Origin: a virus | Lineage: Duplodnaviria; Heunggongvirae; Uroviricota; Caudoviricetes | Strand: one strand, 5' to 3' | Length of the DNA stretch: 30,023 nt | Virus record (IMG/VR): IMGVR_UViG_2690316318_000018 | Coordinates: 1-30,023 of that record | Part shown: positions 4,550-27,955 of the stretch, in pieces | Layout: every line of letters begins with the position of its first letter | How positions within the stretch are numbered: position 1 is the stretch's first letter | Program-made: the position numbers and the translations under genes | The notes under the pieces: model-generated | Told to the model about the DNA's origin: nothing | The model's database searches: none | What the model saw: the letters and a program-made list of their open reading frames with translations, nothing else

Positions 4550-5187
4550 GCGTTTACTCTCAGGTTATCAATTAAATGAATGGCCGGGGCCGGGAAATAA
4601 TCCCCTTCGACAACAATGGACTCCGGGGTGTAGGGATAAACCGTCAGGGCGTCGCCGTAATAGCATCCCGTACCAACGAAAATCTTTCCGTTCACACTCA
4701 GACTGATCGCCAGCCCTGTCAGATGGCGACTTACTGGTTTTGCATCCGCAATAAGGCGCTCAAGTTCCTGATACATTTCATCGGTGATGCCCTGATCAAG
4801 TACTCCGACAACAATGCGAAATGTTCCAGGCTCCTCATTGAGTTGCCACCACTCCTTTACTTCAATCAGGTAGCCGAGAGGCTCCACGGCTCTTCGCAGT
4901 GCGCTGATGGTCCCTTTGTGTCGGTGTATCAGCCATGCATCACGAATCACCTGTCGCTTTGTCTCTTCCGGCCAGTTGCGATCCCAGCGGTCAACGGAAA
5001 ATGCCCAGGCGAGATAAGGCAGCAGATGCACCGGGCAGGTGTCCGGCGACCACAGCGTGTTGAGGTTTACCGGAATGTCTGTAATGCGCGTTCCGACAGC
5101 TTCGGCACAATGCATGAAATTGCTGGCTGATGGCGGTAACAGTGAATTACTCATTACGCCCACCTTCGCTGATGGTGAATGACTCAC
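4546..5187 (-). CDS. I: Baseplate assembly protein I
   Basis: 213-aa ORF between J and H, overlapping both by 4 nt (coupled); position and size fit P2 gpI. Confidence 0.8.
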   Translation of the reverse strand: MSHSPSAKVGVMSNSLLPPSASNFMHCAEAVGTRITDIPVNLNTLWSPDTCPVHLLPYLAWAFSVDRWDRNWPEETKRQVIRDAWLIHRHKGTISALRRAVEPLGYLIEVKEWWQLNEEPGTFRIVVGVLDQGITDEMYQELERLIADAKPVSRHLTGLAISLSVNGKIFVGTGCYYGDALTVYPYTPESIVVEGDYFPAPAIHLIDNLRVNA

Positions 5188-6043
5188 AGCGCGCCGCCTG
5201 TATGTCGCTGATGGCCATATTTTGTGTGGGTTCGATTATCTCCACGCGTTGCACACCGTGCACATGCAGTGCGGCAGCAATGGCTGACAACGCCACGTCC
5301 TGACCGATAAGCCCCTGCTCAGACAGCCACTTCCTGAACGACGATTCCGCCGCGGCCAGAATAGGTTCGGATTCCGGGCCGGGGTAAAAGTACAGTTTTG
5401 CATTCAGCCGCCATGTCACGATTCTGGCACTCTGTACGGTCAGGCGGTCGGCCACCGGGCGGGTATCCTCTGCATTCAGAACGGCGCGAACGGTATTAAG
5501 CAACGCCTCCGTTGCTGTGCCGTCGCCCTCAGTGGACAGGATGGAAACCGTCACGTTGGCCGGAGACGGGCTGATGGCCCGCGCATCGCGTACCAGACCG
5601 CTGGCGCTGCGTGCAAAATACTCGTATGCACCTGACGGGCCAGCAACACTCAGACCGTCATATGCCCGTTGCGCCCGTAGTCTCAGCGAGGTGTCACTTT
5701 CCATCACTGCGTCGGTGGTATCCGTTGCCGGAGTGATAACCAGGCGCTTTGTGTTCATATTGCCCGCGAGGTTGTCCAGGTCTGTCCCGGCGCTGTGGCT
5801 TAGCATGCAGGCGCGTGCACCCTCATTGACCCGCTGGCGTAACAGCATTTCACGAAAAGACATGGTTTGAGCGATAACGTTCAGGGGTTCCGATTCCAGC
5901 TTCAGCGCGGCGGAGACGGCTTCACGCTGTTCGGCAGGATAGGACGCAATTATCATGGCCTTTGTGTCAGCCAGAATTGCCTCAAAATCAGGCTCCGCGA
6001 TGATGGCGGGTTCCGGTAACTGGGAAAGGTCAACAGCAGGCAC
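5147..6043 (-). CDS. J: Baseplate protein J
   Basis: 298-aa ORF at the P2 gpJ position, between W and I; size matches. Confidence 0.85.
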   Translation of the reverse strand: MPAVDLSQLPEPAIIAEPDFEAILADTKAMIIASYPAEQREAVSAALKLESEPLNVIAQTMSFREMLLRQRVNEGARACMLSHSAGTDLDNLAGNMNTKRLVITPATDTTDAVMESDTSLRLRAQRAYDGLSVAGPSGAYEYFARSASGLVRDARAISPSPANVTVSILSTEGDGTATEALLNTVRAVLNAEDTRPVADRLTVQSARIVTWRLNAKLYFYPGPESEPILAAAESSFRKWLSEQGLIGQDVALSAIAAALHVHGVQRVEIIEPTQNMAISDIQAARCESFTISEGGRNE

Positions 6044-8374: not shown

Positions 8375-8612
8375 GTCTGGCCTCTCCGTCCTGATTGCGT
8401 TGCTGATTTTCCACGCGGAGTTGCGCCAGCACCTGCTGCATATCCTGTACCCCGGCGCTGATGATATTCAGTGTGTCGACGGTACTTTTCAGGGTGCTGG
8501 CCTGTACTTCGTTTCTGGCGTTCTCCCGGCCAAGCGACCATGACAGACGCATGGATGTTTCCCATGCGGCAATCAGAAGAAAAGCGATGCCCAGAGAAGT
8601 CCATAACTTCAT
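8205..8612 (-). CDS. lysB: Inner-membrane spanin (LysB/Rz-like)
   Basis: 135-aa ORF with N-terminal TM segment (MKLWTSLGIAFLLIAAW) followed by a charged coiled-coil-like region; sits directly after the endolysin. Confidence 0.7.
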   Translation of the reverse strand: MKLWTSLGIAFLLIAAWETSMRLSWSLGRENARNEVQASTLKSTVDTLNIISAGVQDMQQVLAQLRVENQQRNQDGEARREQLRNDIAKDECAHALPDARFTDRLRRHAERATASAVSPAYTADADHTGNASPLP

Positions 8613-9154
8613 GCCGCTACGCGTTCCTTTATCCAGCCGTAGACAAACGACTCGTTGGCTTCGCGTTTTTCCGCCAGCTCCAGATAGCGTTCACCTTGTG
8701 TACAGTTCAGTGCTGCTAACATCACCATCTCGCCGTCCCGACCGCGTTTGTCCAGATATGCACGCAATGCGTTAATCGTGCGTGGGCCAGTGCGTCCGTC
8801 CGTGTCCATATCGGGATACAGTTTCCCGCCCTGATTGAATGCGTTCAGCCAGCGCTGCAGCATTCTGGTTGCCACAGACGGCCCCATATTTACTCCGGTG
8901 TCACACAGTTCTGCGGCAATATCCGGGGACAGCTTCGCTATCTGATCAAAACGCGGTCCGTACCAGTAATCAGCTTCAAGGATTTCCAGTGCCTGTCCGC
9001 GCGTTAAATCACGCATATCGCCACGGTATCCGTGCGCCCGTGCCACCTTTTCAGTGATGCCCCATTTTGTCGGGCCGCCTTTGTCATCCGGGTGATTGAC
9101 GTAGCCGCCTTCTTTGCCCAGAACGGCATCAAAAATTTCGTCTTTCGATTTCAT
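8609..9154 (-). CDS. Endolysin, GH108-type N-terminal domain with predicted C-terminal peptidoglycan-binding domain
   Basis: 181-aa ORF. N-terminal motif …LGKEGGYVNHPDDKGGPTKWGIT… is characteristic of GH108 (YbcS-like) phage muramidases. Located between holin and spanins. Not a P2 gpK (lambda R-type) lysozyme. Confidence 0.7.
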   Translation of the reverse strand: MKSKDEIFDAVLGKEGGYVNHPDDKGGPTKWGITEKVARAHGYRGDMRDLTRGQALEILEADYWYGPRFDQIAKLSPDIAAELCDTGVNMGPSVATRMLQRWLNAFNQGGKLYPDMDTDGRTGPRTINALRAYLDKRGRDGEMVMLAALNCTQGERYLELAEKREANESFVYGWIKERVAA

Positions 9155-16544: not shown

Positions 16545-18749
16545 TTACGTGTCGAGAGAAATTTGTGTGCGCAGTTGAATAGGATTCAGAATTGTATATC
16601 GCTGGCGAATAACATTATATAAATCAAAGTCTTTTACCCTTACGCTTATTACCATCGCATATTGCATATCAGGGGCTGAAACTCCCTTAACATGGCGCGA
16701 AGAATCTCGGGCATGATACCGTATATCAAAAACTGGATCGCTTAATAATGTATCAGCACTGAACTTTTTGCTTCTGTGCAAACAAGTTTCCCACTTATGA
16801 CCTTCACTCCTACACTCCCTTTCAGTCTTATACTGGCTTTTTTGACCAAAGAAATCATCTGTATCGGTATCGTCAAGGCCGAATCTTGGGCGGAAAGTTA
16901 CCTGCATACCGGCCCTTGTATAGTTTACTGAATGTTCAGGATCTACTGGGGTTTGAATGCATAAAGTAGCGGTAAGCTCAAATGCTTCGTCAAAGGGAAC
17001 ATCAGGGAATGGGATCGGTGCCCTTAAATATTTATTTTTTGCTAATGAACCATAGTAAATTACTGTAGCAGTATCATTTGGACAATCGATTAAAACGTTA
17101 GGATCCTCACTAAACCGTCCCCAACCGATATGTTCACGCGAATATTTTCTTGATGTTTCAGCATGATGAACAAGCAACGCTTTCAATGCAATGGTGTTCA
17201 ATGGAGTTCCTGATAGAGCCGCAACTCCAGCGGCCGTTCTCAATGCTAATGGAGAGGCATAACTGGTTCCTTGAACTCCAACTATAGAACCAAGCAGAGG
17301 GTTGTAAGTGTAAAAAGGCTCGTCGTCGCTTCCACCAAAAATAACACCATCAGGTTTAACGAATCCGGGGCTTCTGCCTGGCCCAATACAGCTATATGGT
17401 GCCCGCCCCCATTTTTCACCGCTACGATCAGCAGCACCAATCGCTAGCGCGTTTACCATATCGGAAGGAGGTTGTATTCTCGCTGCATCACCGTCCTCAT
17501 TGCCATCATTCCCAACAGCAACAGTAAGTAATATCCCATGCTTAGCACAGATTTGGTCTAAAACAGCAGTCCATACATGAACCTCATCATCACCAATTGG
17601 AAGATGAGGACCAATACTTAGATTAGCGAACTTATAGTCACCACTATCAAGAACGGACTGTATTTTCTTAAGGACATCAAATAAATCCCAATTGCCATTG
17701 TCACCTGATGTCGGTGAAAGAACTCTATAATGATCTACATTCATAAACGGTCTTTTAAAAGAAGGTGCATTTTCCTCGACACGTCCGAATAAGAAAGTGG
17801 ATGTCACTTCATTACCGTGCTGCAATAATAATCCGCTTGTTTCTTTGGTGTCTGGATACACGTATTCCGTAACCCAATTACTCAAGTCAGCTGTCCCCAA
17901 GCCACCATCAAAAATGGCAATACGTTCGGATTCAAGAACAGCTTTAGAATTAGGGAGCTCCGGTGTAACTATATTAGATAACTTTCTGACAATGTTCGGC
18001 TGAGTACACCTGAGAGACGGCATCGGCCGCACAACGCGGATTAATGAAAAATCGAGTGTTTTTTTCATATCTTCAGGTCGCGCGTGTGCAACGATGAAAG
18101 TCAGCCCACCAACTTGGATTCTACTTTTGTAATCAACAGAGACATCATATTGTGCCGCATAGCTAATATAGGCTTTAACGATATCATCGTCTTCAACCCC
18201 AGCATGAAGAACCACTTCAAATTTTATCAAATCACTTTTCGCATGCTCAAAATTGCGTGCTCTCTCTTTTCCTTCAAAAAAGCTAACACTTTCAATTTCG
18301 ATCAAATCCTTTTGTACGCCCTTCGGAGCTGTAGGGGAATTTAAAATTTCCTTAAATCTTATAACGGCATCATCATCACCGCTAACAAACAGTTGCGCCG
18401 TTACTAAGTCCTTATTCTGATCGCACTGACGTGCCGCTTTCCGTGGGCGAATGATTACCTGACGGCTGCCGACATCCCGTAAACCTGTCGCTCTAAGCAA
18501 TCCTTCCGGAAAGTAGCTTTTACCCAAAAACGCTGGGTGTAAAGTTAAATTGAATACACTCTCCCCCCTTGGCTTAGCCGCATCATCCAAACTGCGAAAG
18601 CGTGAGAGTAAAGTATCAATCTCTGGGTTTAAATGCTCCCTTACTTCTTCAAGAGTATAGGGATAGCGCTTACCATCCCTTCCTTTAGGCAAAGGTTCCT
18701 TTTTTGTCAGAACATGACCGTTACCTAAAAGTAAGTTCCTTTCCATCAT
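16545..18749 (-). CDS. Subtilisin-like serine protease (peptidase S8 family) with ~270-aa N-terminal and ~230-aa C-terminal domains of unknown function
   Basis: 734-aa ORF. S8 catalytic motifs in canonical D-H-N-S order: …RIAIFDGGLG… (Asp ~281), …LLQHGNEVTS… (His ~311), …VAVGNDGNE… (oxyanion Asn ~414), …GVQGTSYASP… (Ser ~496). Start overlaps the upstream ATPase stop (ATGA). AT-rich codon usage. Confidence 0.85.
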   Translation of the reverse strand: MMERNLLLGNGHVLTKKEPLPKGRDGKRYPYTLEEVREHLNPEIDTLLSRFRSLDDAAKPRGESVFNLTLHPAFLGKSYFPEGLLRATGLRDVGSRQVIIRPRKAARQCDQNKDLVTAQLFVSGDDDAVIRFKEILNSPTAPKGVQKDLIEIESVSFFEGKERARNFEHAKSDLIKFEVVLHAGVEDDDIVKAYISYAAQYDVSVDYKSRIQVGGLTFIVAHARPEDMKKTLDFSLIRVVRPMPSLRCTQPNIVRKLSNIVTPELPNSKAVLESERIAIFDGGLGTADLSNWVTEYVYPDTKETSGLLLQHGNEVTSTFLFGRVEENAPSFKRPFMNVDHYRVLSPTSGDNGNWDLFDVLKKIQSVLDSGDYKFANLSIGPHLPIGDDEVHVWTAVLDQICAKHGILLTVAVGNDGNEDGDAARIQPPSDMVNALAIGAADRSGEKWGRAPYSCIGPGRSPGFVKPDGVIFGGSDDEPFYTYNPLLGSIVGVQGTSYASPLALRTAAGVAALSGTPLNTIALKALLVHHAETSRKYSREHIGWGRFSEDPNVLIDCPNDTATVIYYGSLAKNKYLRAPIPFPDVPFDEAFELTATLCIQTPVDPEHSVNYTRAGMQVTFRPRFGLDDTDTDDFFGQKSQYKTERECRSEGHKWETCLHRSKKFSADTLLSDPVFDIRYHARDSSRHVKGVSAPDMQYAMVISVRVKDFDLYNVIRQRYTILNPIQLRTQISLDT

Positions 18750-19828
18750 TTAATCCCCCACTTTTGTAATTTATTCGCGATTGTTGGATGTGAAACACCA
18801 ACTAATTCAGCTATCTTCCTATTTGAAAAACCGTCAAAATGATATTTAATTATATTGAGATCATTATCGCTAAACTCATCCAATGAAACCCTCTCCGTAA
18901 TTACGGCTTCTATTAATGAGCTTTCAAATGGAATATTTCTAAGTACCTCATTCTTTTTGGAGAAATTCAAAATACGGTTAATGATGGCAAAGGACATGCC
19001 ATCTAATAATGGTGCAAGTTTTTTAGATAGTTCAGGTTCAATATTATGATTGACTAAATATCTATCTATCAGTTCTACTGATGGCATATTAAATTTAAGG
19101 ATGTGCTCAAATCGACGCCAAACAGCCGGATCTAAGATATCAGGGTGATTAGTCGCAGCAACAAGAAGCGAGGTCGCTGGCCACTCATCTATGGTCTGTA
19201 GGAGTACAGTAACTAAACGTTTTAATTCTCCAACGTCCCTGTCATCATCACGTCTTTTTGCAACAGCATCAAATTCATCAAGCAAAAGGACACATGGTTT
19301 CTCTTTGGCATAATCCATAACGGATTTAATATTATTACCTGTTTTTCCCAAAAGAGAACTCATTACAGATGAGAGATCCAATGTTAAAAGAGGTAAATTT
19401 AACTTTGCAGCAAGCCAATGTGCGGACATTGTTTTGCCTACGCCTGGCGGGCCAGAAAGTAAAACCGTCTTCACAGGTTCAAGACCAGCTTTGAACAAAG
19501 AAACCGCATTCTCTCTTTCGTTAACAATTGACTCCAGCTTCTTTGAGATATCCGTATTCCATACAGGTTCTTCAACAATTGCGTTGACAGATGTTTCCTG
19601 CAAAAGGTTTCGTCTGGAGTCTCCATCCACAGGCATAGGAGCCTTACTAGATGCCCCACGTAATACTGTTCCCTCAGCAACTAACGAAGCCAGCTTAGAA
19701 GCTAAAGCCTCATCATTTTTACGGATGTTGTTAATCATCTTTCTGCATAGGAGTGTAAATGCATTTGCGTTGCCTTTGATGCCTTGCTCGATGAGTTTGA
19801 AAAGTTCATCCTCCCTCACGTTTACCAT
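18746..19828 (-). CDS. Classic-clade AAA ATPase with predicted C-terminal helix-turn-helix
   Basis: 360-aa ORF. Walker A LSGPPGVGKT (~126-133), Walker B VLLLDEFD (~180-187), second region of homology …LLVAATNHPDILDPAVWRRFEH… (sensor-1 Asn, Arg fingers). C-terminal segment …SNRKIAELVGVSHPTIANKLQKWG… resembles a LuxR / sigma-70 region-4 type HTH. Confidence 0.85.
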   Translation of the reverse strand: MVNVREDELFKLIEQGIKGNANAFTLLCRKMINNIRKNDEALASKLASLVAEGTVLRGASSKAPMPVDGDSRRNLLQETSVNAIVEEPVWNTDISKKLESIVNERENAVSLFKAGLEPVKTVLLSGPPGVGKTMSAHWLAAKLNLPLLTLDLSSVMSSLLGKTGNNIKSVMDYAKEKPCVLLLDEFDAVAKRRDDDRDVGELKRLVTVLLQTIDEWPATSLLVAATNHPDILDPAVWRRFEHILKFNMPSVELIDRYLVNHNIEPELSKKLAPLLDGMSFAIINRILNFSKKNEVLRNIPFESSLIEAVITERVSLDEFSDNDLNIIKYHFDGFSNRKIAELVGVSHPTIANKLQKWGIK

Positions 19829-20132
19829 AAAACCCCCAATAAAACATCAGCTTGTGTAAGCTGGTAACTACATTAATGAAAATCATTGACTAATGTTACC
19901 ACTCTTGCTGGCGTAATTCAAAGAGTATCCTTACTTTTTTACTGTATGGATAATCAGCATAAAATCTATCCAGTTGGGTTACTCGAACATACTGTCAATA
20001 CTTGTTTCCAACGATTGATCAGTTCTACAGTTTTATCTCCTTCACTTGTGTTGGCAGCATGCTTATTCCTGAACCAGCTCGATTACTTGGCCATTTGAGA
20101 AAGATGTGTAGATCTTCTGATGGTTTGTATTG

Positions 20133-20206: not shown

Positions 20207-20518
20207 TTATTCAGGAAATAACGCCCGGATATTTCCGGCCATCTGACTGGTTATCTGTGCGGTTGATACTGGCTGTGACGCGGGGCGTTCTGTCTTGGTT
20301 TGTGTCACTGATAACACCTCATCATCAGCCCATGCAGCCAGTCGGTAAGCCTCTGCCGGATTCATTTTCAGAAGTGCCAGCCCGGCCAGAAAAGCCACGC
20401 GTTGGCCGCTTTTGCGGGCTTCTGGTGTAAGGCTGTCCAGCCAGGCGCATGCTTCTCCTTCGTTCTTGACGGCGGTGGGCTTCAGATAGAAACTTATCCG
20501 TCTGGTTGGAGTCGTCAT
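20207..20518 (-). CDS. parR: ParR-like centromere-binding partition protein
   Basis: The track ORF is N-terminally overextended; starting at the internal Met (MTTPTRRISFYLKP…) gives 103 aa. Pattern …ISFYLKP…LDSLTPEARKSGQRVAFLAGLAL…IRALFPE resembles plasmid R1 ParR as I recall it. Starts 5 nt after the parM stop. Confidence 0.7.
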   Translation of the reverse strand: MTTPTRRISFYLKPTAVKNEGEACAWLDSLTPEARKSGQRVAFLAGLALLKMNPAEAYRLAAWADDEVLSVTQTKTERPASQPVSTAQITSQMAGNIRALFPE

Positions 20519-20522
20519 TGGT

Positions 20523-21482
20523 TTACTCCTTGTCCATTGCGTACAGCCCATTAACCAGAGCAAACTGTGGCACCCCGTCCGCGATGAAAGTCGCATTAAC
20601 TCCGCAGGCTTCGCGGATAGCGGGTGCCACAATCTCCGCCCCTCCACCGACAACCATCACCCGCCCGTAACCCGAAAAAACCGCCAGCGCGCGGATCACG
20701 CGTTGTTTCAGTGTTTCCTCCTTTTCACGAATAACCGCCATCAGGCTGTCGTAATGCGCGTCATTGTGGATGTGCTGGCGCAGCCAGGCTTCATCATAGC
20801 GATGTTCGATAATGGTATTGGCGATGTGGTGACTGGTGCGCATACCGTTAGTGGCCATCACCGACAGCACGGCATCGGCCATCAGAGAAACGCCTACGTG
20901 TGGATCGCAAAACACCTGGCTGATACCTGCCAGTTGCCCCTGAACCTTTGCCACATCCAGCGTGGTTCCGCCCAAATCCACAATCAGCAGGGATTCAAAC
21001 GGACTCATGTCAGCCAGTGCTTTAAAGCCAGCCGGAATGGATTCAGGCATAACCCGCACGTTACGGATAGTGAATGCTTCGCCGTTCTGGTACTCCACCG
21101 GGCGCATAACGTTCGCTTTTTTGCGGTTGATGTTGGCCATGTCCGGCTGTGCGTTTGTGTCGAAATACTCGCTCAGTGGCAGGGTGACAACCACATCCAC
21201 CTCCTGTGGTGTGATGCCTGATTTGACCAGCGCGTGATGAATGGCAATGACATTCACATCGCTGTATTGGTATTGCGTGTCGGTCGTCTGGACAAAGCGA
21301 TCGCTGACCGGATCAAAACCATAGCGCACGCCATCAAGCATGTAGTTCGCGGGCTGCGTGCCACCGAACGGCGCAGACCATTCCGACTTGAAGCTGTTCG
21401 GGCTGATGGCGTTGCGGCGTTCGCCGTTCTCAGTCCATGCCAGCTTGATGTTGGTGGAGCCGTCGTCGATACAAATTTTCAT
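20523..21482 (-). CDS. parM: ParM/StbA-like actin-family partition ATPase
   Basis: 319-aa ORF. N-terminus MKICIDDGSTNIKLAW…ISPNSFK…YQYSDVNVIAIHHAL…VMPESIPAG…LIVDLGGTTLD… closely parallels plasmid R1 ParM (…FIDDGSTNIKLQW…ISPNSFK…WQYSDVNVVAVHHAL…VMPESIPAG…) as recalled from memory. Confidence 0.85.
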   Translation of the reverse strand: MKICIDDGSTNIKLAWTENGERRNAISPNSFKSEWSAPFGGTQPANYMLDGVRYGFDPVSDRFVQTTDTQYQYSDVNVIAIHHALVKSGITPQEVDVVVTLPLSEYFDTNAQPDMANINRKKANVMRPVEYQNGEAFTIRNVRVMPESIPAGFKALADMSPFESLLIVDLGGTTLDVAKVQGQLAGISQVFCDPHVGVSLMADAVLSVMATNGMRTSHHIANTIIEHRYDEAWLRQHIHNDAHYDSLMAVIREKEETLKQRVIRALAVFSGYGRVMVVGGGAEIVAPAIREACGVNATFIADGVPQFALVNGLYAMDKE

Positions 21483-21513: not shown

Positions 21514-21625
21514 TTTACGGGATTCTGAAATCCCGTTTTTGCCTGTTTTCTGCGCGCTTCATATATCGCTGCGCGTTTTTTGCTCATTTACGGGATTCGT
21601 GAGTCCCGTTTCTGTCTGTTTTTTG
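21514..21625. repeat. Two near-identical ~35-bp hairpin-plus-T-tract modules flanking the gene A stop, upstream of parM (parC-like or terminator candidates)
   Basis: TTTACGGGATTCTGAAATCCCGTTTTTGCCTGTTTT at 21514..21549 and TTTACGGGATTCGTGAGTCCCGTTTCTGTCTGTTTTTTG at 21588..21625. Each contains a 6-7 bp palindrome ACGGGA(T)…(A)TCCCGT. Confidence 0.5.
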
Positions 21626-24426
21626 TTTCCACTGGTCAGGCCACCCCGCAGCAGGTCTGCTTTGCGGCGGGCGCGTTCAGTGGTTTCACTGATTCTCTGT
21701 GCGTGCTCTGCGTCGCGGATGGCGCGCAGCATGTCAGAAAGCACGGTAACGGGTGTTTTCATGGTGTTCTGGTCCTGCTGAAGTGTGGATGCCAGGCGTG
21801 CGGCGGCTTCAGGGTCTGATGCCCCCAGCTGTGTCAGATAGCTGGCGACCGGGTTATGGCGGATCTCCGTGCTGCTTACGCCATGATTACGGCTCAGGCG
21901 CTGCCAGAGCTGCGTGATTCGGCTGTCCGGGCGGGTATCCGGTTTGCGTACAATTTCAAATCCCTGCGGTGCAATGATGCTGCCGTCAACGTACAGACTG
22001 CCGCCCCGTAACAGGTGCTGCATCTGTTGTTCACCGATATGCAGGCCGAGAGATTCAGCAGACTCCCGCCATTCTTTAGCGAGTAATTCGTGGTTATCAG
22101 GCAAAGGCCGCTGCTGTTTGCGGCTCTGTGTCCAGCTCTGCATTTCATCACTGCTGTTTTTTGCCTGTTTGTCACGAAGCGAACGCATCAGCGCCCGGCG
22201 TTCGTGCCGTTTCAGTGAGCGCATCCATTCATCCACATCAACGCCGTCAGGGAGCTGCGGCCACGGTGCTGGCCGTTCTTCCGGCTGTTCTGTCCCGTTG
22301 TTGTCCGTTTCCTGTACACGGGGACAGTTATTGCCACGAGTCCAAGGGGCGGCAGGGCCGCCCTGAAGGTCAAAACCATTTTCGCGGGCGCTGTCTTCCG
22401 CTTCCGGTTTACGTCTTACCAGCTTCCAGTTATCCGGATGTGTGCACACACGGGAAGACTCCCCGATGAGTGGTGACCAGATCCCGTAAATCTGTACGCT
22501 CTGTTCGCCGTAATCGTTCAGCTCATCTGCGAGGTCGTAGGCGGTGCGAATCAGGTAGTCTTTGCGTGGAACAAGTACGCCGCCCTGTTTTTCAATGTAG
22601 GAGGCAAAACACCCGGCATCAGCGGCAGCGAGCACTGCATCCATTGCGTCATCCTTCAGTCGTTGCGGGCCTTCCGGGTTGCGTGCCATCTGGCTGGCAA
22701 GGCGGCGCAGTTCACGCCACACCTGACGGGAGGGGATGCCAAAGAACTGGAACTGGCGGACCCGGTGAAGGCGCGCCCAGCCGATGGCGCGCTCCACGCT
22801 CTCGGCCATTGATTTTCCGGTTTCGTGGTCAACGCGTGGCTTGCCCGTTTTCGGGTCGATACCATCCACGGCGCGGCTGTCCAGGTTCTTTCCGATGTAG
22901 GTGGCGATGTAGCTGGTTGGCGTGCCTTTTGAGCCGTCGACATACTCCGCCTTAAAGCGCGGAGTAATATCATTGCCCAGCTCGTGGCGGTCTTCCTGAA
23001 TGGCAATATCGCGGGTGATGGCCACGATGCTGTCGATTTCTTCCGGATGAGCAAAGACCATCATATGCCAGTGCACAGTGCCGTCATGGTGAGGCTCCAC
23101 CGTGCGGATGCCATACCAGCGCAGGCCGTCGCGGTTCAGTTTCTTGCGGACCGCCGCAAAAAACGTGTTAACCAGGTAATCGCTGGAGTCGCGCATGGTG
23201 GCCCCGTTCCATTTGGGGTTCGGATGACCGTTCTCTGTTGTGGCGTGGTATTTTGACGGGCAGGTGACAGTCAGAAACACCGCTCTGTCGCCACGGGCTT
23301 CGGCCAGAAGTTCCAGTCCCTTCATGGTGGCCATCATTTCTGCCTTACGGTGAACCGGGTTACTTACTCCCGCGTAATACACTGTCTCGAGATCAATCGT
23401 GAACCCGTCTTCATTTTCCAGCATGAAACTTTTCAGGAAATCGCGTGTTTTCTCGCGCTGTGCGCGAAACTCGCTTAACGCGTCCTGGCTCAGATAGGGT
23501 GATGTTTTTCTGGAAACCAGACAGGCGGCGCGGAGTTGTTCTTCTCTCCACTCGCAACGTAACAGCCACAGTTTGCGTTTCCACCATTCCGCACAGGTCA
23601 GGCGAAGGATTGCGCCCGGCAGCAGCTCCGTGTCCGGTTCGTTCCTCCGGTCTTTGTCTGTTGTCAGTGCGTCATAATGTGGAGGCATGGCGTGCAGGTG
23701 TAACGCCATGCGGGCCAGCATCTGATACGCCTTCAGCGTTACATCCATGGTCAGTTCGCCATCAGTCGCGCCAAAGCCATCGCAGAGTTTTTCGAAGGTG
23801 CTGCTGAACATCGCCGCCGTCATGGTGGCCAGCGTCTGTATCTGGTGTTTGTTGAGCTGCGGCAGGTAAAGCAAATCGTCCAGGCGTTCGCGTCCGGCAA
23901 GGGAGCGATAACCCGGTGTCAGCCAGCGGTGGTCGGTGCGGTCCAGACGTTCGAATATTTTGCGCAGGGTTCCGCGCGCGTAGCGTTCCGCCTGCCAGCT
24001 CTTTTTGCCTTTCTGACGATCGGCTTCCTGCTTCTTGCGCAGGAAAGAGAGGTGGCGGCTCAGAGGTTCTCGCAGATAAACGGGAAGCGCCTTCAGTGTG
24101 GCAAAGGCACGGGCTACCGGGTCTTGTTCTGTTGCCCGGCGCTTACTGATGATGCTCTGTGCCAGCTTTTCACGCTGTCCGGCTTCCTCAAGGGATGCCA
24201 TGAGTTTTTTACCCATGGCGGATTGTGCGAAAAAGGCTTCTTCCTTCGCTTCCTGTTCTTTCTGTGCCCTTTTGTCCGCCTCAAGGTAGTAACGGATGGC
24301 GCGTTGCAGGTCGGTTTCAGTTTCCTGCCTGTGCTCCGTAAATCTGGCTGGATCAATGGCTGGCCGTGGTTCATTCCAGCTCCATGCAAACTCACTCATG
24401 GCTGGTATCCCGTCACGCGCTGCCAC
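21559..24426 (-). CDS. A: Replication initiation protein A (rolling-circle replication endonuclease)
   Basis: 955-aa ORF at the P2 gene A position, the largest early gene, after the small early ORFs and before the accessory interval. Longer than P2 gpA as I recall it. Confidence 0.75.
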   Translation of the reverse strand: MAARDGIPAMSEFAWSWNEPRPAIDPARFTEHRQETETDLQRAIRYYLEADKRAQKEQEAKEEAFFAQSAMGKKLMASLEEAGQREKLAQSIISKRRATEQDPVARAFATLKALPVYLREPLSRHLSFLRKKQEADRQKGKKSWQAERYARGTLRKIFERLDRTDHRWLTPGYRSLAGRERLDDLLYLPQLNKHQIQTLATMTAAMFSSTFEKLCDGFGATDGELTMDVTLKAYQMLARMALHLHAMPPHYDALTTDKDRRNEPDTELLPGAILRLTCAEWWKRKLWLLRCEWREEQLRAACLVSRKTSPYLSQDALSEFRAQREKTRDFLKSFMLENEDGFTIDLETVYYAGVSNPVHRKAEMMATMKGLELLAEARGDRAVFLTVTCPSKYHATTENGHPNPKWNGATMRDSSDYLVNTFFAAVRKKLNRDGLRWYGIRTVEPHHDGTVHWHMMVFAHPEEIDSIVAITRDIAIQEDRHELGNDITPRFKAEYVDGSKGTPTSYIATYIGKNLDSRAVDGIDPKTGKPRVDHETGKSMAESVERAIGWARLHRVRQFQFFGIPSRQVWRELRRLASQMARNPEGPQRLKDDAMDAVLAAADAGCFASYIEKQGGVLVPRKDYLIRTAYDLADELNDYGEQSVQIYGIWSPLIGESSRVCTHPDNWKLVRRKPEAEDSARENGFDLQGGPAAPWTRGNNCPRVQETDNNGTEQPEERPAPWPQLPDGVDVDEWMRSLKRHERRALMRSLRDKQAKNSSDEMQSWTQSRKQQRPLPDNHELLAKEWRESAESLGLHIGEQQMQHLLRGGSLYVDGSIIAPQGFEIVRKPDTRPDSRITQLWQRLSRNHGVSSTEIRHNPVASYLTQLGASDPEAAARLASTLQQDQNTMKTPVTVLSDMLRAIRDAEHAQRISETTERARRKADLLRGGLTSGNKKQTETGLTNPVNEQKTRSDI

Positions 24427-24785
24427 TCCTGCGAGAAGAGGGTGGAAAGGCGGTTAAATTCAGCGGTGTATTCACTCAGCGAGGCACACCCGCCAGCAGT
24501 GCGATGCGCCAGCATTGCCGCAAATACGGAGGCCGGGGAGTCGTAATACGCCAGTAGTGATTCGCCGTGTGGTGTCAGGCAGTGCAACGCCAGCCCGTGT
24601 GGTGTGAAGTCCACGCGGTAGCAGTCGTCTACTGTGAAATAAAGGGTGTCTGCATTCTCTGGTTTTGTGGTGCGTGCTCTGTTGTCACGACCACGGATGT
24701 AGAGATCAAATAATCCCTGAAGAACGGGAGCCAGACGGGTGTCCTGTGTGCGCACCCATCTTGTGAAGTCATGAGCGTCAATCAT
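24396..24785 (-). CDS. Hypothetical early protein (129 aa) overlapping the start of A
   Basis: ORF immediately upstream of A in the same orientation, in the interval of the small P2 early ORFs; no motif recognised. Confidence 0.5.
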   Translation of the reverse strand: MIDAHDFTRWVRTQDTRLAPVLQGLFDLYIRGRDNRARTTKPENADTLYFTVDDCYRVDFTPHGLALHCLTPHGESLLAYYDSPASVFAAMLAHRTAGGCASLSEYTAEFNRLSTLFSQEWQRVTGYQP

Positions 24786-24857: not shown

Positions 24858-25088
24858 TTAATGGAGTTTGTTTTGCTGCTGGATGAGCTGTTGAAGCTCG
24901 TGCAGATCATCCGCCAGATAGCTGAAAACAGAGGCGGAATAGATGTTCGATAGCGCGTGGCTGCGCTCATGCAGCATATTGATGTGCATGATTTGCGCGA
25001 CGCGTGATGCGCGGAAAAGTCTACGGTTGATTTCAGTCTGGATGTGACGACGCGCAGCGTATGCGCGCTGTTGTTTGCGGTTTGCCAT
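24858..25088 (-). CDS. Hypothetical basic small protein (76 aa)
   Basis: ATG at 25088 preceded by AAGAGG at appropriate spacing; basic N-terminus (MANRKQQRAYAARRH…). Confidence 0.5.
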   Translation of the reverse strand: MANRKQQRAYAARRHIQTEINRRLFRASRVAQIMHINMLHERSHALSNIYSASVFSYLADDLHELQQLIQQQNKLH

Positions 25089-25265
25089 GGTGTGGCCTCT
25101 TTGCTCGGTGATAGAAATAACTCACCATCCAGAGTTGAGAATCTCGGGGTGGCGAGACGTACAGGGTTCTCAACACCGGAGAGCAAAGAATCCGGCCCGA
25201 CCGAAGTCGGCCCCGTACGCCCCGCCATAATTCTGACGCGAAAAAGACGTGGCAATACAGTACGC

Positions 25266-25290
25266 ACAAAAAAACCGCTTGCGCGGTTAT
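25266..25290 (-). terminator. Rho-independent terminator (minus strand) downstream of the 99-aa gene
   Basis: Minus-strand reading AACCGC-GCAA-GCGGTT followed by TTTTTTTGTG. Confidence 0.45.
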
Positions 25291-25358
25291 GCGCTTTGCT
25301 CTGTATCGGGTTGAGAATCCCGGCACCCGTTTTATGAGGTGCAGCGGAAATGTAACCT

Positions 25359-25390
25359 GACCGATTGCGGCATGGCAAGCGGTTTTTTTG
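25359..25390 (+). terminator. Terminator-like hairpin plus T7 tract on the plus strand
   Basis: CCGATTGC-GGCATG-GCAAGCGG followed by TTTTTTTG; imperfect stem. Confidence 0.35.
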
Positions 25391-25410
25391 TGTGTGCATG
25401 TTCTGGTTTC

Positions 25411-27273: not shown

Positions 27274-27552
27274 TTATTTTGTCATCTGCACGTATTTCTC
27301 TGCGTTTCTGATGGTTTTCAGGAAAATTGCGAAGAGATTTACTGTACGTTTTGAGTTTTTTTCTTCTTGGTTGATGGGAAGGGCTGCTCTGTCAGCCTGC
27401 CTTTTCACTGCATTAACAGTTTGATTGGTACGCTTCGCGTAATCTTTCAGGCTTTCTTCGAGTACCGGTAATCCATGCTCATCGCGGTATGGGTAGAACG
27501 CCGCCAAACGCTCAAAATCCGCTTGCTCGTATGTGTTCAAGAGCTTTGTCAT
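27274..27552 (-). CDS. cox: Cox/Apl-like excisionase-type regulator (HTH)
   Basis: 92-aa ORF divergent from the C repressor gene. Central segment …DYAKRTNQTVNAVKRQADRAALP… follows the P2 Cox HTH pattern (…AKLIGKSTGAVRRMIDKGKLP…) as I recall it. Confidence 0.6.
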   Translation of the reverse strand: MTKLLNTYEQADFERLAAFYPYRDEHGLPVLEESLKDYAKRTNQTVNAVKRQADRAALPINQEEKNSKRTVNLFAIFLKTIRNAEKYVQMTK

Positions 27553-27643: not shown

Positions 27644-27955
27644 ATGTCAAGTGGGTACGAAAAAAAACTGAAAGAGATACGGAAAAGTGAAGGGTTAACT
27701 CAAGCTGAGTTTGCAGATGTTACTGGGATAAATCTCGGAACTATAAAGAATTATGAGAGCGGTAAAAGAGAGGTTGGTTTAAGCGTTGTTGATCGCGTAA
27801 TTAATTCTAAGGATTTCGAAAAATACACTATATGGCTTATGACGGGAAAAACAAATGAGGCTGCTGGGCAGATCAGTCCCTCTCTCTCCCCTGATGGGCC
27901 AGAAAACACATCGTCTTCTCAAAAATCCCGCAAGACTGGTACACAGCCCGGCTAA
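27644..27955 (+). CDS. C: Immunity repressor C (P2 C-type HTH repressor)
   Basis: 103-aa ORF. …RKSEGLTQAEFADVTGINLGTIKNYESGKR…KYTIWLMTGKT…GQISPSL… parallels P2 C (…RKSEYLSRQQLADLTGVPYGTLSYYESGRS…KYTLWFMTNQ…GQIAPAL…) as recalled. Confidence 0.85.
   Translation: MSSGYEKKLKEIRKSEGLTQAEFADVTGINLGTIKNYESGKREVGLSVVDRVINSKDFEKYTIWLMTGKTNEAAGQISPSLSPDGPENTSSSQKSRKTGTQPG

Follow-up and report, generated by a model that had tools for sequence, protein, structure and literature searches.

The interval 25090-25400 of the window, the whole stretch of 30,023 nucleotides from an IMG/VR virus record that was analysed here, is a copy, so far without annotation, of a regulatory cassette already known from phages, in which an IsrK-like RNA is followed by a C4/CI-type RNA and both are accompanied by matching target sites. 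As a whole, the interval is very probably best explained as an antisense-RNA control cassette of the P4/P1 type, carried by a P88-like prophage (Xuanwuvirus, P2-related) on its minus strand. The cassette is real and looks functional, but its kind is known, the class of mechanism having been familiar since the work on P1 c4 and P4 CI. The host element is a complete P2-type (helper-type) E. coli prophage, and within it the cassette precedes antirepressor and replication genes, where it probably acts as an antisense immunity switch that gates translation of an epsilon-like gene, and A too. Searches of the literature turned up no report that describes isrK or C4 from P2-like phages, and no tRNA or tmRNA was found within the 30-kb window.

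The original prediction, made from the sequence alone, described a structured non-coding interval with nested hairpins, a repeated motif and convergent terminators, and proposed a phage-encoded small RNA or a cis-regulatory leader for the genes leading into A. It named no strand for this interval; all the structures that it listed sit on the minus strand, and they make sense solely there. The covariance-model search that it recommended recovered isrK and then C4 in tandem on one strand, both as full-length Rfam matches above the gathering score (GA), so that the proposed small RNA is now represented by two recognised RNAs. The features of the cassette, in the order of transcription, are as follows.

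25349..25378, minus strand: sigma-70-type promoter-like site, TTGCCA-18 nt-TACATT (promoter scan, consensus match), with a predicted start near 25342
25266..25342, minus strand: IsrK-like small RNA (Rfam match 25342..25268; RF01394, 63.1 bits, GA 50, model positions 1-77)
25342..25323, minus strand: IsrK hairpin 1
25322..25307, minus strand: IsrK hairpin 2
25310..25317, minus strand: b1, UUCUCAAC, located in the hairpin 2 loop of IsrK and complementary to b'
25294..25302, minus strand: a1, AGAGCAAAG, directly 5' of the IsrK terminator, complementary to loop a'
25288..25273, with a U-run to 25266, minus strand: IsrK intrinsic terminator (terminator scan)
25145..25232, minus strand: C4/CI-type antisense RNA (RF01695, 78.5 bits, GA 45, model positions 1-87 of 87, E 5e-14)
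25180..25191, minus strand: a', AUUCUUUGCUCU, the 12-nt loop of C4 hairpin 2, a recognition element
25167..25174, minus strand: b', GUUGAGAA, the single-stranded linker from hairpin 2 to the closing stem, a recognition element and the equivalent of P4 seqB
25134..25141, minus strand: b2, UUCUCAAC, 3 nt past the C4 3' end, the equivalent of P4 seqC, complementary to b'
25097..25106, minus strand: a2, GAGCAAAGAG, which overlaps AAGAGG, the Shine-Dalgarno sequence of the epsilon-like gene, and stops 8 nt short of the start codon (AUG, 25088)

The promoter-like site ends 6-7 nt upstream of the Rfam isrK 5' end, and by eye a -35/-10 pair stands at an equal distance in every lineage examined (P4 PLE, lambdoid, P4-like and N15-like) despite the differing sequences. 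The IsrK-like RNA, which is here the equivalent of the P4 seqA leader, has a fold of -24.5 kcal/mol (z -2.5), and 16 of its 16 helix pairs are retained in 10 relatives; its terminator, already suspected in the original prediction, is recovered by the scan together with its U-run and is invariant in the same number of relatives. After a spacer of 35 nt comes the C4 RNA, with a 17-bp closing stem, hairpin 1, hairpin 2 bearing the loop a', and then the single-stranded linker b'. Its fold reaches -47.6 kcal/mol (z -4.9), the minimum-energy and centroid structures both coincide with the Rfam consensus structure, and pairing in the scaffold helices amounts to 98.2% across 10 relatives, with three pairs altered on both sides. 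The two internal hairpins of this RNA correspond to those noted earlier at 25176-25195 and 25196-25217. The promoter scan also returned a second candidate promoter for C4, TTGCCA-17-AATTAT at 25255..25227, which is probably no promoter, since its spacing is lost in lambdoid loci (gap 24 nt) and 'AUUAUGG' belongs to the C4 model as its conserved 5' edge, although it might still serve as one in the P88 group. The terminator scan found no intrinsic terminator downstream of C4. Expression of the RNAs of the cassette is suggested by homology to P4, P1/P7, N15 and Gifsy-1, where such RNAs have been detected.

The repeated motif of the original prediction, GTTGAGAATC, has exactly two copies in the 30-kb window (25134 and 25310), where shuffles expect 0.02 occurrences, and is the DNA of the b1 and b2 target sites; the 8-mer GTTGAGAA has three copies, all within 185 nt, two of them on the plus strand and one on the minus strand at 25167-25174. 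The motif is a pair of antisense target sites, not a protein-binding repeat. Likewise, the 8-bp stem between 25134-25141 and 25167-25174 and the inner TCTCG/CGAGA stem are present and belong to the minimum-energy fold of the unprocessed minus-strand transcript, and this 'nested hairpin' represents antisense-target pairing in its cis form. Each of a' and b' has two complementary copies on the transcript, b1/a1 in IsrK and b2/a2 downstream of C4. Since b2 lies 46 nt upstream of the AUG, a2 alone touches the ribosome-binding site, and the minimum-energy fold of the unprocessed leader, which pairs a' with a2 and b' with b2, buries the Shine-Dalgarno sequence. Other C4 targets were sought across the window, and nowhere else do a- and b-type sites co-occur.

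The conservation and covariation analysis that had also been suggested showed that the six patches covary in 17 diverse loci, which formed the covariation set and were compared with 500 shuffles. Cognate runs are present in all 17 at nearly fixed positions, with lengths of 8-11 nt for a'-a1, 8-12 nt for a'-a2, and 7-8 nt for both b'-b1 and b'-b2. Between C4 and IsrK, 17 of 22 pairs are altered on both sides, in 95 cells, giving a score of 0.694 against 0.144 for shuffled data (0 of 500), with slid controls at or below 0.144; between C4 and the downstream sites the corresponding figures are 16 of 22 pairs, 93 cells, and 0.700 against 0.167 (0 of 500). Within the first comparison, the 7-bp core of b'-b1 is paired in nearly every cell and 7 of its 10 columns are altered on both sides, as are 10 of the 12 columns of a'-a1. 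These in-register run counts and covariation counts replaced RNAduplex matrices of cognate and non-cognate energies, which were dropped because GC-rich flanks pair off-site and make them too noisy. Additionally, complementarity of at least 7 nt links a' with a2 and b' with b2 in 119 of 119 IMG/VR loci, and the end of a2 stands 7-12 nt upstream of the AUG in 14 of the 17 loci. At one IMG/VR locus (L023) b1 mismatches its own b', which counts against the antisense switch.

At the same time, within a leader that is otherwise conserved, the six elements vary most, with a diversity of 0.36 compared with 0.09 elsewhere (10 P88-like loci, Fisher p 1.3e-7). These 10 loci contain 10 a variants, so that each locus has its own, and 4 b variants. 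Both kinds of element are hypervariable and assort independently, in at least 20 combinations; the specificity type of the window, b GUUGAGAA with a AUUCUUUGCUCU, can be set against that of locus L008, ACUGCGAA with GUUCUUUGGUUG.

The genes that follow the cassette, and the repressor of the prophage, are listed below.

24858..25088, minus strand: gene for an epsilon-like 'derepression protein' of 76 aa, the first of the genes under control of the leader (Pfam PF25738, 32 bits, cut-off 27)
24785..24396, minus strand: orf129, phrog_3237 (PHROGs), of unknown function
about 24399 (RefSeq-type start) to 21559, minus strand: replication gene A (Pfam Phage_GPA, 436 bits)
27644..27955: prophage repressor, a full-length homologue of P2 C (E 7e-17 to PDB 2XCJ/2L49)

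The proposal of a cis-regulatory leader agrees with this layout, in that the interval is the leader of the epsilon-like/orf129/A block and the C4 elements are complementary to leader sites with which they covary across lineages. Control of the genes leading into A holds to the extent that the leader belongs to that block; its immediate target is the epsilon-type antirepressor gene, and A lies further downstream. The epsilon-like protein shares 33% identity over 51 aa with P4 epsilon (BLASTP, E 5e-9), which itself scores 170 bits on PF25738, and its gene carries the label 'derepression protein' in some records. The P2 C repressor is the known target of P4 epsilon (PMC2669165). As distal genes of the epsilon-like transcription unit, orf129 and A are joined by a 4-nt overlap of the A start with the orf129 stop in the RefSeq layout, and the order epsilon-like, orf, A recurs in all P88-like loci and in 74 IMG/VR contigs. 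Homology of orf129 to P4 orf151 was considered and rejected, as the two have no similarity. The first ORF past the cassette is the epsilon-like gene itself, in place of the icd of the P1 type, and tblastn with an Icd-like protein gave no match in 86 epsilon-type loci. No LexA-like site of the form CTGT-N8-ACAG was found in or near 25090-25400, and the 13 LexA-like matches across the window, against 9.1 expected, are at chance level.

Among known systems, satellite P4 is close in layout. The P4 immunity region, analysed alongside the window, is ordered PLE, seqA, cI RNA/seqB, seqC and later epsilon, orf151 and alpha; P4 matches both Rfam families, in equal order and strand after a promoter, at the seqA leader and the CI RNA, with seqC next and epsilon later. 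In both elements three mutually complementary sites occupy the leader of a replication-protein operon, namely GUGAGAA / UUCUCAC / GUGAGAA in P4 and UUCUCAAC / GUUGAGAA / UUCUCAAC in the window, where b1/a1, a'/b' and b2/a2 precede the epsilon-like gene, orf129 and A. The first ORF has a second element over its ribosome-binding site, the seqC site falls within a few nt of the antisense RNA, and an epsilon homologue and then a replication protein gene follow. In P4, CI pairs with seqA and seqC (PMC4825925, discussion), and IsrK and C4 have been described as structural homologues of P4 seqA and CI, forming an 'IsrK-C4 immunity system' (PMC3632133). There are also differences. P4 is a satellite, whereas the element in the window is a complete helper-type phage; its replication gene encodes the rolling-circle initiator A rather than the primase-helicase alpha; its epsilon-like gene is the first ORF after the cassette, without an ORF of the kil/eta type; and its IsrK-C4 spacer measures 35 nt compared with 107 nt in P4. 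Since a P2 C-type repressor is present, a P4-like role of the cassette as the primary immunity determinant is unlikely.

The immI region of P1/P7 (c4, icd, ant) and the anti-immunity locus of N15 were compared through the literature, with one N15-like locus (L018) in the aligned set. They share with the window a C4-family RNA upstream of an antirepressor gene, two single-stranded elements that match sites upstream and downstream, with the downstream site at the ribosome-binding site, and specificity elements that differ between related phages and give rise to heteroimmunity (PMC12197685, PMC8198154, PMC3632133). In P1/P7, c4 pairs around the ribosome-binding site, blocks antirepressor synthesis and sets heteroimmunity (PMC12197685, PMC8198154). 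Unlike these phages, the window has an antirepressor that belongs to the P4 epsilon family instead of being an Ant, BRO or Rha protein, and a replication initiator within the transcription unit of the cassette. P1, N15 and the P4-like loci also have an icd-like ORF that the window lacks, which counts against the antisense switch. The Gifsy-1 locus of Salmonella, isrK - orf45 (STnc1160) - anrP, resembles the window in its order of elements: an IsrK-family RNA, which has a promoter of its own and a terminator that is leaky, then an RNA processed to about 80 nt, and then an antirepressor gene. IsrK and the downstream RNA have complementary sequences in common. The locus differs in being lambdoid, in that IsrK activates antirepressor translation in trans, and in that the C4 equivalent is read as the translated orf45 (PMC4825925). 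The P2 early operon (cox - orf78 - B - orf80-83 - A) has in common with the window a C repressor homologue, a cox-like gene and the terminal position of A, but P2 gives no match to isrK or C4 and lacks an epsilon-like gene. The cassette, conserved in P88-like phages and absent from P2, marks the P88-like lineage.

The isrK-C4 pair also occurs in phage P88 and in 15 further loci of four element types, with a gap of 23-36 nt in those 15 loci; in the lambdoid Rha-type loci (L013-L015 and L017) the layout of IsrK, C4 and antirepressor matches. The P88-type region was found in 1,293 of 5,426 complete E. coli genomes, and a relative of the RNA cassette of any kind in 1,867 of them, at 2,845 places; a search of genome contigs with the epsilon-like protein retrieved three close loci only. 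In RefSeq the cassette is unannotated or drawn as spurious CDSs, including 'ash family protein', hypotheticals on either strand and N-terminal extensions of Rha.

The homologous systems suggest how the cassette may operate. Transcription from the promoter-like site would yield an IsrK-like RNA that ends at the strong intrinsic terminator, and transcripts reading through would be processed, probably by RNase P, into a stable C4 RNA of about 80 nt, as for P1/P7 c4, P4 CI and N15. By the same analogy, C4 may pair in trans, and possibly in cis too, with the b2 and a2 sites of leader transcripts, and this pairing would block ribosome binding at the epsilon-like antirepressor gene, while expression of orf129 and A would be lowered via loss of translation or premature termination. 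No intrinsic terminator was found downstream of C4, and any effect of C4 on A would need Rho-dependent polarity, a point against the antisense switch. In P1, control reportedly combines translational repression with Rho-dependent termination, and in P4 it is said to involve t1 and timm. Antisense pairing raises termination at P4 t1, a parallel for the IsrK terminator, beside which pairing at b1/a1 could likewise raise termination; alternatively, free IsrK may titrate C4. The outcome would be a second, sequence-specific layer of immunity, with antirepressor and replication initiator kept off both in the lysogen and in any superinfecting phage that shares its specificity. During lytic growth, transcripts from the early promoter that reach A must cross the IsrK terminator and the C4 targets, a point that counts against the antisense switch. 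So does the behaviour of Gifsy-1 IsrK, the sole one tested, which acts positively, activating translation of the downstream antirepressor (PMC4825925); at the P88-like cassette IsrK may therefore act in either direction. More tentatively, and with the odds somewhat against it, IsrK-C4 may constitute in P88-like P2 relatives a second, RNA-based immunity determinant gating antirepressor and A, whose hypervariable a and b elements would define heteroimmunity groups among near-identical prophages.

A purely cis-acting leader switch is a rival explanation. Under it a' and b' would pair either upstream, with a1/b1, leaving the ribosome site free, or downstream, with b2/a2, burying it, and no processed trans RNA would be needed. 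The unprocessed C4-plus-leader transcript does form a':a2 and b':b2 in cis, at -59.5 kcal/mol compared with -47.6 kcal/mol for C4 alone; three mutually exclusive complementary segments are the classic sequester/anti-sequester layout; a further covarying alternative helix joins UGGUGAG (25127..25121) to the C4 3' strand; and the Gifsy-1 isrK leader has two alternative cis structures that differ in translational activity (PMC4825925). However, the compact C4 fold, with its 17-bp closing stem, 98% pairing and z of -4.9, suits a released stable RNA, the homologues in P1/P7, P4 and N15 act in trans after processing and set heteroimmunity (PMC12197685, PMC3632133), and strong diversification of specificity is to be expected if the RNA discriminates in trans between related phages, but is harder to reconcile with action in cis. 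An exclusively cis-acting switch is improbable, and the cis and trans modes are not mutually exclusive.

Far less probable still are a protein product of the interval and a pair of terminators. An 'Ash family protein' or hypothetical CDS is annotated here in some RefSeq/GenBank records, RNA-sense frame 0 is stop-free over 323 nt in 10 of 10 P88-like relatives, the 205-aa ORF has a weak match to Pfam Phage_ASH (E 0.002), and Gifsy-1 orf45, which overlaps the C4 homologue, has been reported as translated (PMC4825925). Nevertheless, the judgement that this ORF is unconvincing holds: its PF10554 score of 19 bits is below the cut-off of 26, variable sites are spread over the codon positions as 18/21/22 without phase bias, and a protein would not be conserved, because two loci (L006 and L011) have frame-shifting indels. 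At the RNA level the changes are compensatory, the ORF begins upstream of the IsrK promoter and traverses the epsilon-like gene out of frame, and the annotations conflict on strand and extent. Moreover, the P4 'cI ORF' that anchors PF10554 covers the P4 CI RNA locus, and P4 immunity is attributed to the RNA, not to a protein (PMC4825925, PMC3632133). Convergent terminators or insulators separating two early transcription units, without any regulatory RNA function, would fit the strong intrinsic terminator on the minus strand at 25288..25273, a plus-strand hairpin with a T-run at 25359..25390, and the putative terminator that P2 has within its early operon before A. Of this proposed convergent pair, the minus-strand member stands and the plus-strand one does not:

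25359..25390, plus strand: rejected 'terminator', which on the minus strand overlaps the -35 box of the IsrK promoter

It is an imperfect hairpin of -11.4 kcal/mol (z -0.66), neither significant nor conserved, that is absent from the output of the terminator scan, shows no covariation in 10 relatives and retains its central C-G pair in two of them. The terminator pair also leaves the six covarying patches and the Rfam matches unexplained, and this explanation is disfavoured.

The antisense cassette presents a helper-type relative of P2 whose epsilon-type antirepressor and replication initiator would be under antisense control of the kind used by satellite P4, and it bears on the origin of the immunity and derepression module of P4 and on the inducibility of P88-like prophages (PMC2669165, PMC5285337). 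A conserved two-RNA cassette, present in about a quarter of complete E. coli genomes, is unannotated or misdrawn in RefSeq. The concerted diversification of six short patches provides a clean natural data set for the specificity of RNA-RNA recognition and for phage heteroimmunity. If the cassette is indeed a second immunity determinant, it could explain why P88 and Sp13 are inducible by mitomycin although they have P2 C-type repressors without a cleavage domain; the cI-epsilon module of P4 and the module of its helper lineage would share an origin, and RNA cross-talk between helper and satellite would be possible.

The interval at 25090-25400 contains a P4/P1-type IsrK-C4 antisense cassette, a class already well described, here in P88-like Peduoviridae. 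A whole-window Rfam scan returned exactly two matches, isrK and C4, each a full-length minus-strand hit within the interval. The C4 RNA folds into the consensus shape (-47.6 kcal/mol, z -4.9); its element a' is complementary to a1 and a2, and its element b' to b1 and b2. The end of the isrK model coincides with a minus-strand terminator, and the terminator scan predicted no intrinsic terminator downstream of C4.

Features of the cassette and of the genes around it.
27644..27955: full-length P2 C repressor homologue, E 7e-17 to PDB 2XCJ/2L49
27552..27274: cox-like gene, with several small early genes next
25378..25349, minus: sigma-70-like site TTGCCA-18-TACATT, ending 6-7 nt before the isrK start
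25342..25268, minus: isrK (RF01394), 63.1 bits (GA 50)
25317..25310, minus: b1, UUCUCAAC, IsrK hairpin 2 loop
25302..25294, minus: a1, AGAGCAAAG, immediately before the IsrK terminator
25232..25145, minus: C4 antisense RNA (RF01695), 78.5 bits (GA 45)
25191..25180, minus: a', AUUCUUUGCUCU, the 12-nt loop of C4 hairpin 2
25174..25167, minus: b', GUUGAGAA, in the C4 linker
25141..25134, minus: b2, UUCUCAAC, 3 nt past C4
25106..25097, minus: a2, GAGCAAAGAG, overlying the Shine-Dalgarno sequence, its end 8 nt upstream of the AUG (25088)
25088..24858, minus: 76-aa epsilon-like ORF, after the interval
24785..24396, minus: 129-aa ORF (orf129), after the 76-aa ORF
ending at 21559, minus: A, Phage_GPA replication endonuclease, 436 bits

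The original prediction of a small RNA or leader was essentially right, and the finding is real: the listed features all sit at the positions given, with only the plus-strand terminator losing its support. The repeated 10-mer GTTGAGAATC occurs exactly twice in 30 kb, both times within the interval (expectation 0.02); at the DNA level the two copies correspond to b2 and b1, and an 8-mer of the repeat occurs a third time, inverted, between them. The proposed 8-bp stem is the b':b2 pairing in cis, while the two further hairpins (25176-25195 and 25196-25217) are C4 hairpins 2 and 1. Of the convergent terminators, the minus-strand one was recovered by the terminator scan; the plus-strand one is an imperfect hairpin (z -0.66) that is absent from the scan, lacks covariation and keeps its central pair in 2 of 10 relatives, and it was rejected. 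The 205-aa ORF, suspected to be spurious, was likewise dismissed as a gene: its Pfam Phage_ASH match is sub-threshold (19 bits against 26), its variable sites show no codon-phase bias (18/21/22 by phase), and indels shift the frame in relatives.

The isrK and C4 pair is present in all 15 added loci, separated by 23-36 nt; these comprise nine P88-like loci (from E. coli, Salmonella, E. albertii and one record titled Vagococcus), four lambdoid loci bearing Rha-type antirepressors or their remnants, one P4-like locus and one N15-like linear plasmid. Together with the window and P4 they form a set in which cognate elements are complementary in 17/17 loci at near-constant positions, with runs of 8-11 nt for a'-a1, 8-12 nt for a'-a2, and 7-8 nt for b'-b1 and b'-b2. 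Covariation was counted after aligning the six patches in register, with the caveat that each locus's register was the one giving the longest run; the registers proved constant relative to conserved anchors. On this basis, 17 of 22 C4-IsrK pairs changed on both sides (95 cells; score 0.694 versus 0.144 shuffled, 0/500, with a maximum of 0.144 when the partner was slid), as did 16 of 22 C4-downstream pairs (93 cells; 0.700 versus 0.167 shuffled, 0/500). An IMG/VR pattern scan yielded 119 further loci, and in every one b'-b2 and a'-a2 are complementary for 7 nt or more. The upstream sites are clearly mismatched in one of them, IMGVR_UViG_2547132417_000016 (cassette ~5200-5450), where b1 (UUCUCAC) disagrees with the locus's own b' (UGUGGAAA) and b2 (UUUCCAC); this locus may be a recombinant of two specificity types.

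In a set of 10 P88-like loci, the scaffolds of both RNAs are near-invariant (98.2% paired) and most variation sits in the six patches, where pairwise diversity is 0.36 versus 0.09 in other leader positions (Fisher p 1.3e-7). These loci carry 10 a and 4 b variants; 86 epsilon-type IMG/VR loci carry 15 a and 7 b variants, which assort independently into 20 combinations, and no b variant was common to different element types in the IMG/VR sample. A specificity determinant under diversifying selection would be expected to vary in this way, as in P1/P7 heteroimmunity (PMC12197685).

In an identical Rfam scan, P4 shows the equivalent pair, a leader after PLE (8692..8615) and the CI RNA (8507..8420). 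P4 shares the window's geometry but differs in sequence, having seqA GUGAGAA, CI UUCUCAC and seqC GUGAGAA, and an a' of UCCUGUGAA facing UUCACAGGA at the first ORF's ribosome site; P2 lacks both the isrK and C4 RNAs and epsilon. Published work already treats IsrK as equivalent to P4 seqA and C4 as equivalent to P4 CI, under the term 'IsrK-C4 immunity system' (PMC3632133; PMC4825925). Polarity is inverted relative to P4 (sites at 8440-8450, 8409-8418 and 8660-8670): the window's b' GUUGAGAA (25167-25174) resembles the P4 targets GUGAGAA, and its targets UUCUCAAC (25134-25141 and 25310-25317) resemble the P4 CI element UUCUCAC. Because of this inversion, the two antisense RNAs could pair mutually over ~6 bp, which may be coincidence.

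Beyond anatomy, complementarity and covariation, which are established directly, the steps of the mechanism are drawn from homologues. Read-through past the IsrK terminator would produce a precursor from which the stable C4 RNA is cut; C4 would then pair with b2 and a2, blocking ribosome entry on the epsilon-like gene, and lost translation or premature termination would lower orf129 and A. Pairing with b1 and a1 beside the IsrK terminator might provide feedback on read-through, or free IsrK might titrate C4. A contribution in cis is also plausible, since folding indicates that the unprocessed leader can form a':a2 and b':b2. In P4, CI RNA boosts termination at the Rho-independent site t1 between PLE and cI, with seqA required, and in P1, c4 represses icd translation, leading to Rho-dependent termination before ant; both accounts are compatible with the cassette geometry. 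For A to be made in lytic growth, early-promoter transcripts would have to traverse the cassette. In Gifsy-1, IsrK action is positive (PMC4825925); here it could have either sign.

In a third conserved complementarity, UGGUGAG (25121-25127, minus), 17 nt past C4, can pair with CUCGCCA (25150-25156, minus) on the 3' side of C4's closing stem. The counterparts shift together, to GGCGAUAGC / GCUAUCGCC in P4 and UGGUGGUAGC / GCUACCACCA in the N15-like locus, and this change in step suggests that the transcript, before processing, may form an alternative helix; the margin of cognate over non-cognate runs is small (7.5 versus 6.9).

The cassette is largely unannotated in P88-like phages, and the literature searched held no mention of it in P2-like phages. 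P88, the type phage, carries isrK at 5028..5102 and C4 at 5138..5225, and its RefSeq record (NC_026014) places an opposite-strand 'hypothetical protein' CDS (5033..5221) precisely on top of them; PV468777 labels the stretch 'similar to ash family protein', and in most RefSeq E. coli genomes it has no annotation. What Pfam PF10554 ('Ash protein family') describes is apparently the isrK-C4 RNA locus in conceptual translation (window 25066-25354, minus; P4 8168-8584; lambdoid loci L013 1452-2291, L015 1452-1886 and L017 1456-1731). It is matched by P4's obsolete 'cI ORF' (E 4e-16), by CDSs that RefSeq names 'ash family protein' and by an N-terminal extension on one Rha protein, and all these frames overlie RNA genes. 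A survey of P4-like satellites took PF10554 as its 'epsilon' marker (PMC8628076); true P4 epsilon matches PF25738 instead, so the marker probably tracked the RNA cassette.

The long open frame across the cassette is stop-free in 10/10 P88-like relatives, crosses the epsilon-like gene out of phase and carries no codon-phase signal. An AUG at 25226-25228 (minus), inside AUUAUGG, a conserved motif on the 5' edge of C4, is in frame with it, and some translation is conceivable; the corresponding part of Gifsy-1 is reported to be translated as orf45, coupled to the antirepressor.

By DNA similarity, the window phage is P88-like, of the genus Xuanwuvirus, a P2-related prophage with its early genes on the minus strand. 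The 921-bp region around the interval is present in 1,293 of 5,426 complete E. coli genomes. The order cassette, epsilon-like gene, small ORF and A is constant in all P88-like loci, recurs in 74 IMG/VR contigs, and follows an upstream gene that differs among P88-like loci. One record titled Vagococcus sp., a Gram-positive genus (NZ_JBQPOM010000071.1), holds a copy of the epsilon-like gene and cassette at 93% identity; contamination or mislabelling is more likely than a true host. The A start overlaps the orf129 stop, and the A protein (21559-24426, minus; ~946-955 aa) exceeds the 761-aa P2 A (28034-30319 of P2) by ~190 aa, with Phage_GPA spanning only residues 194-518. Directly downstream, this integrated prophage bears a plasmid-type partition pair (20207-21482, minus), ParM (StbA_N/ParM_N, 319 aa) and a Plasmid_stab_B protein (148 aa); this ParM also appears in the annotation of P88-like records.

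The first gene past the cassette is a member of the 'Derepression' family of P4 epsilon (PF25738, 32 bits, cut-off 27; P4 epsilon itself scores 170 bits), and its product is 33% identical to P4 epsilon (E 5e-9). The P2 C repressor, of which this prophage encodes a homologue, is inactivated by P4 epsilon (work cited in PMC2669165). Sp13, a P2-like prophage of O157 Sakai, is unexpectedly inducible by mitomycin, and in 2009 its epsilon homologue was noted as possibly accounting for this (PMC2669165); P88 too was recovered via mitomycin induction (PMC5285337). A LexA-box-like site, TACTGTATGGATAATCAGCA (CTG-N10-CAG with an AT-rich spacer, 19939-19958), lies ~115 nt upstream (minus strand) of a 360-aa AAA-ATPase and HTH ORF (19828..18746), possibly an SOS-controlled gene; such control, if true, could offer an alternative route to mitomycin inducibility.
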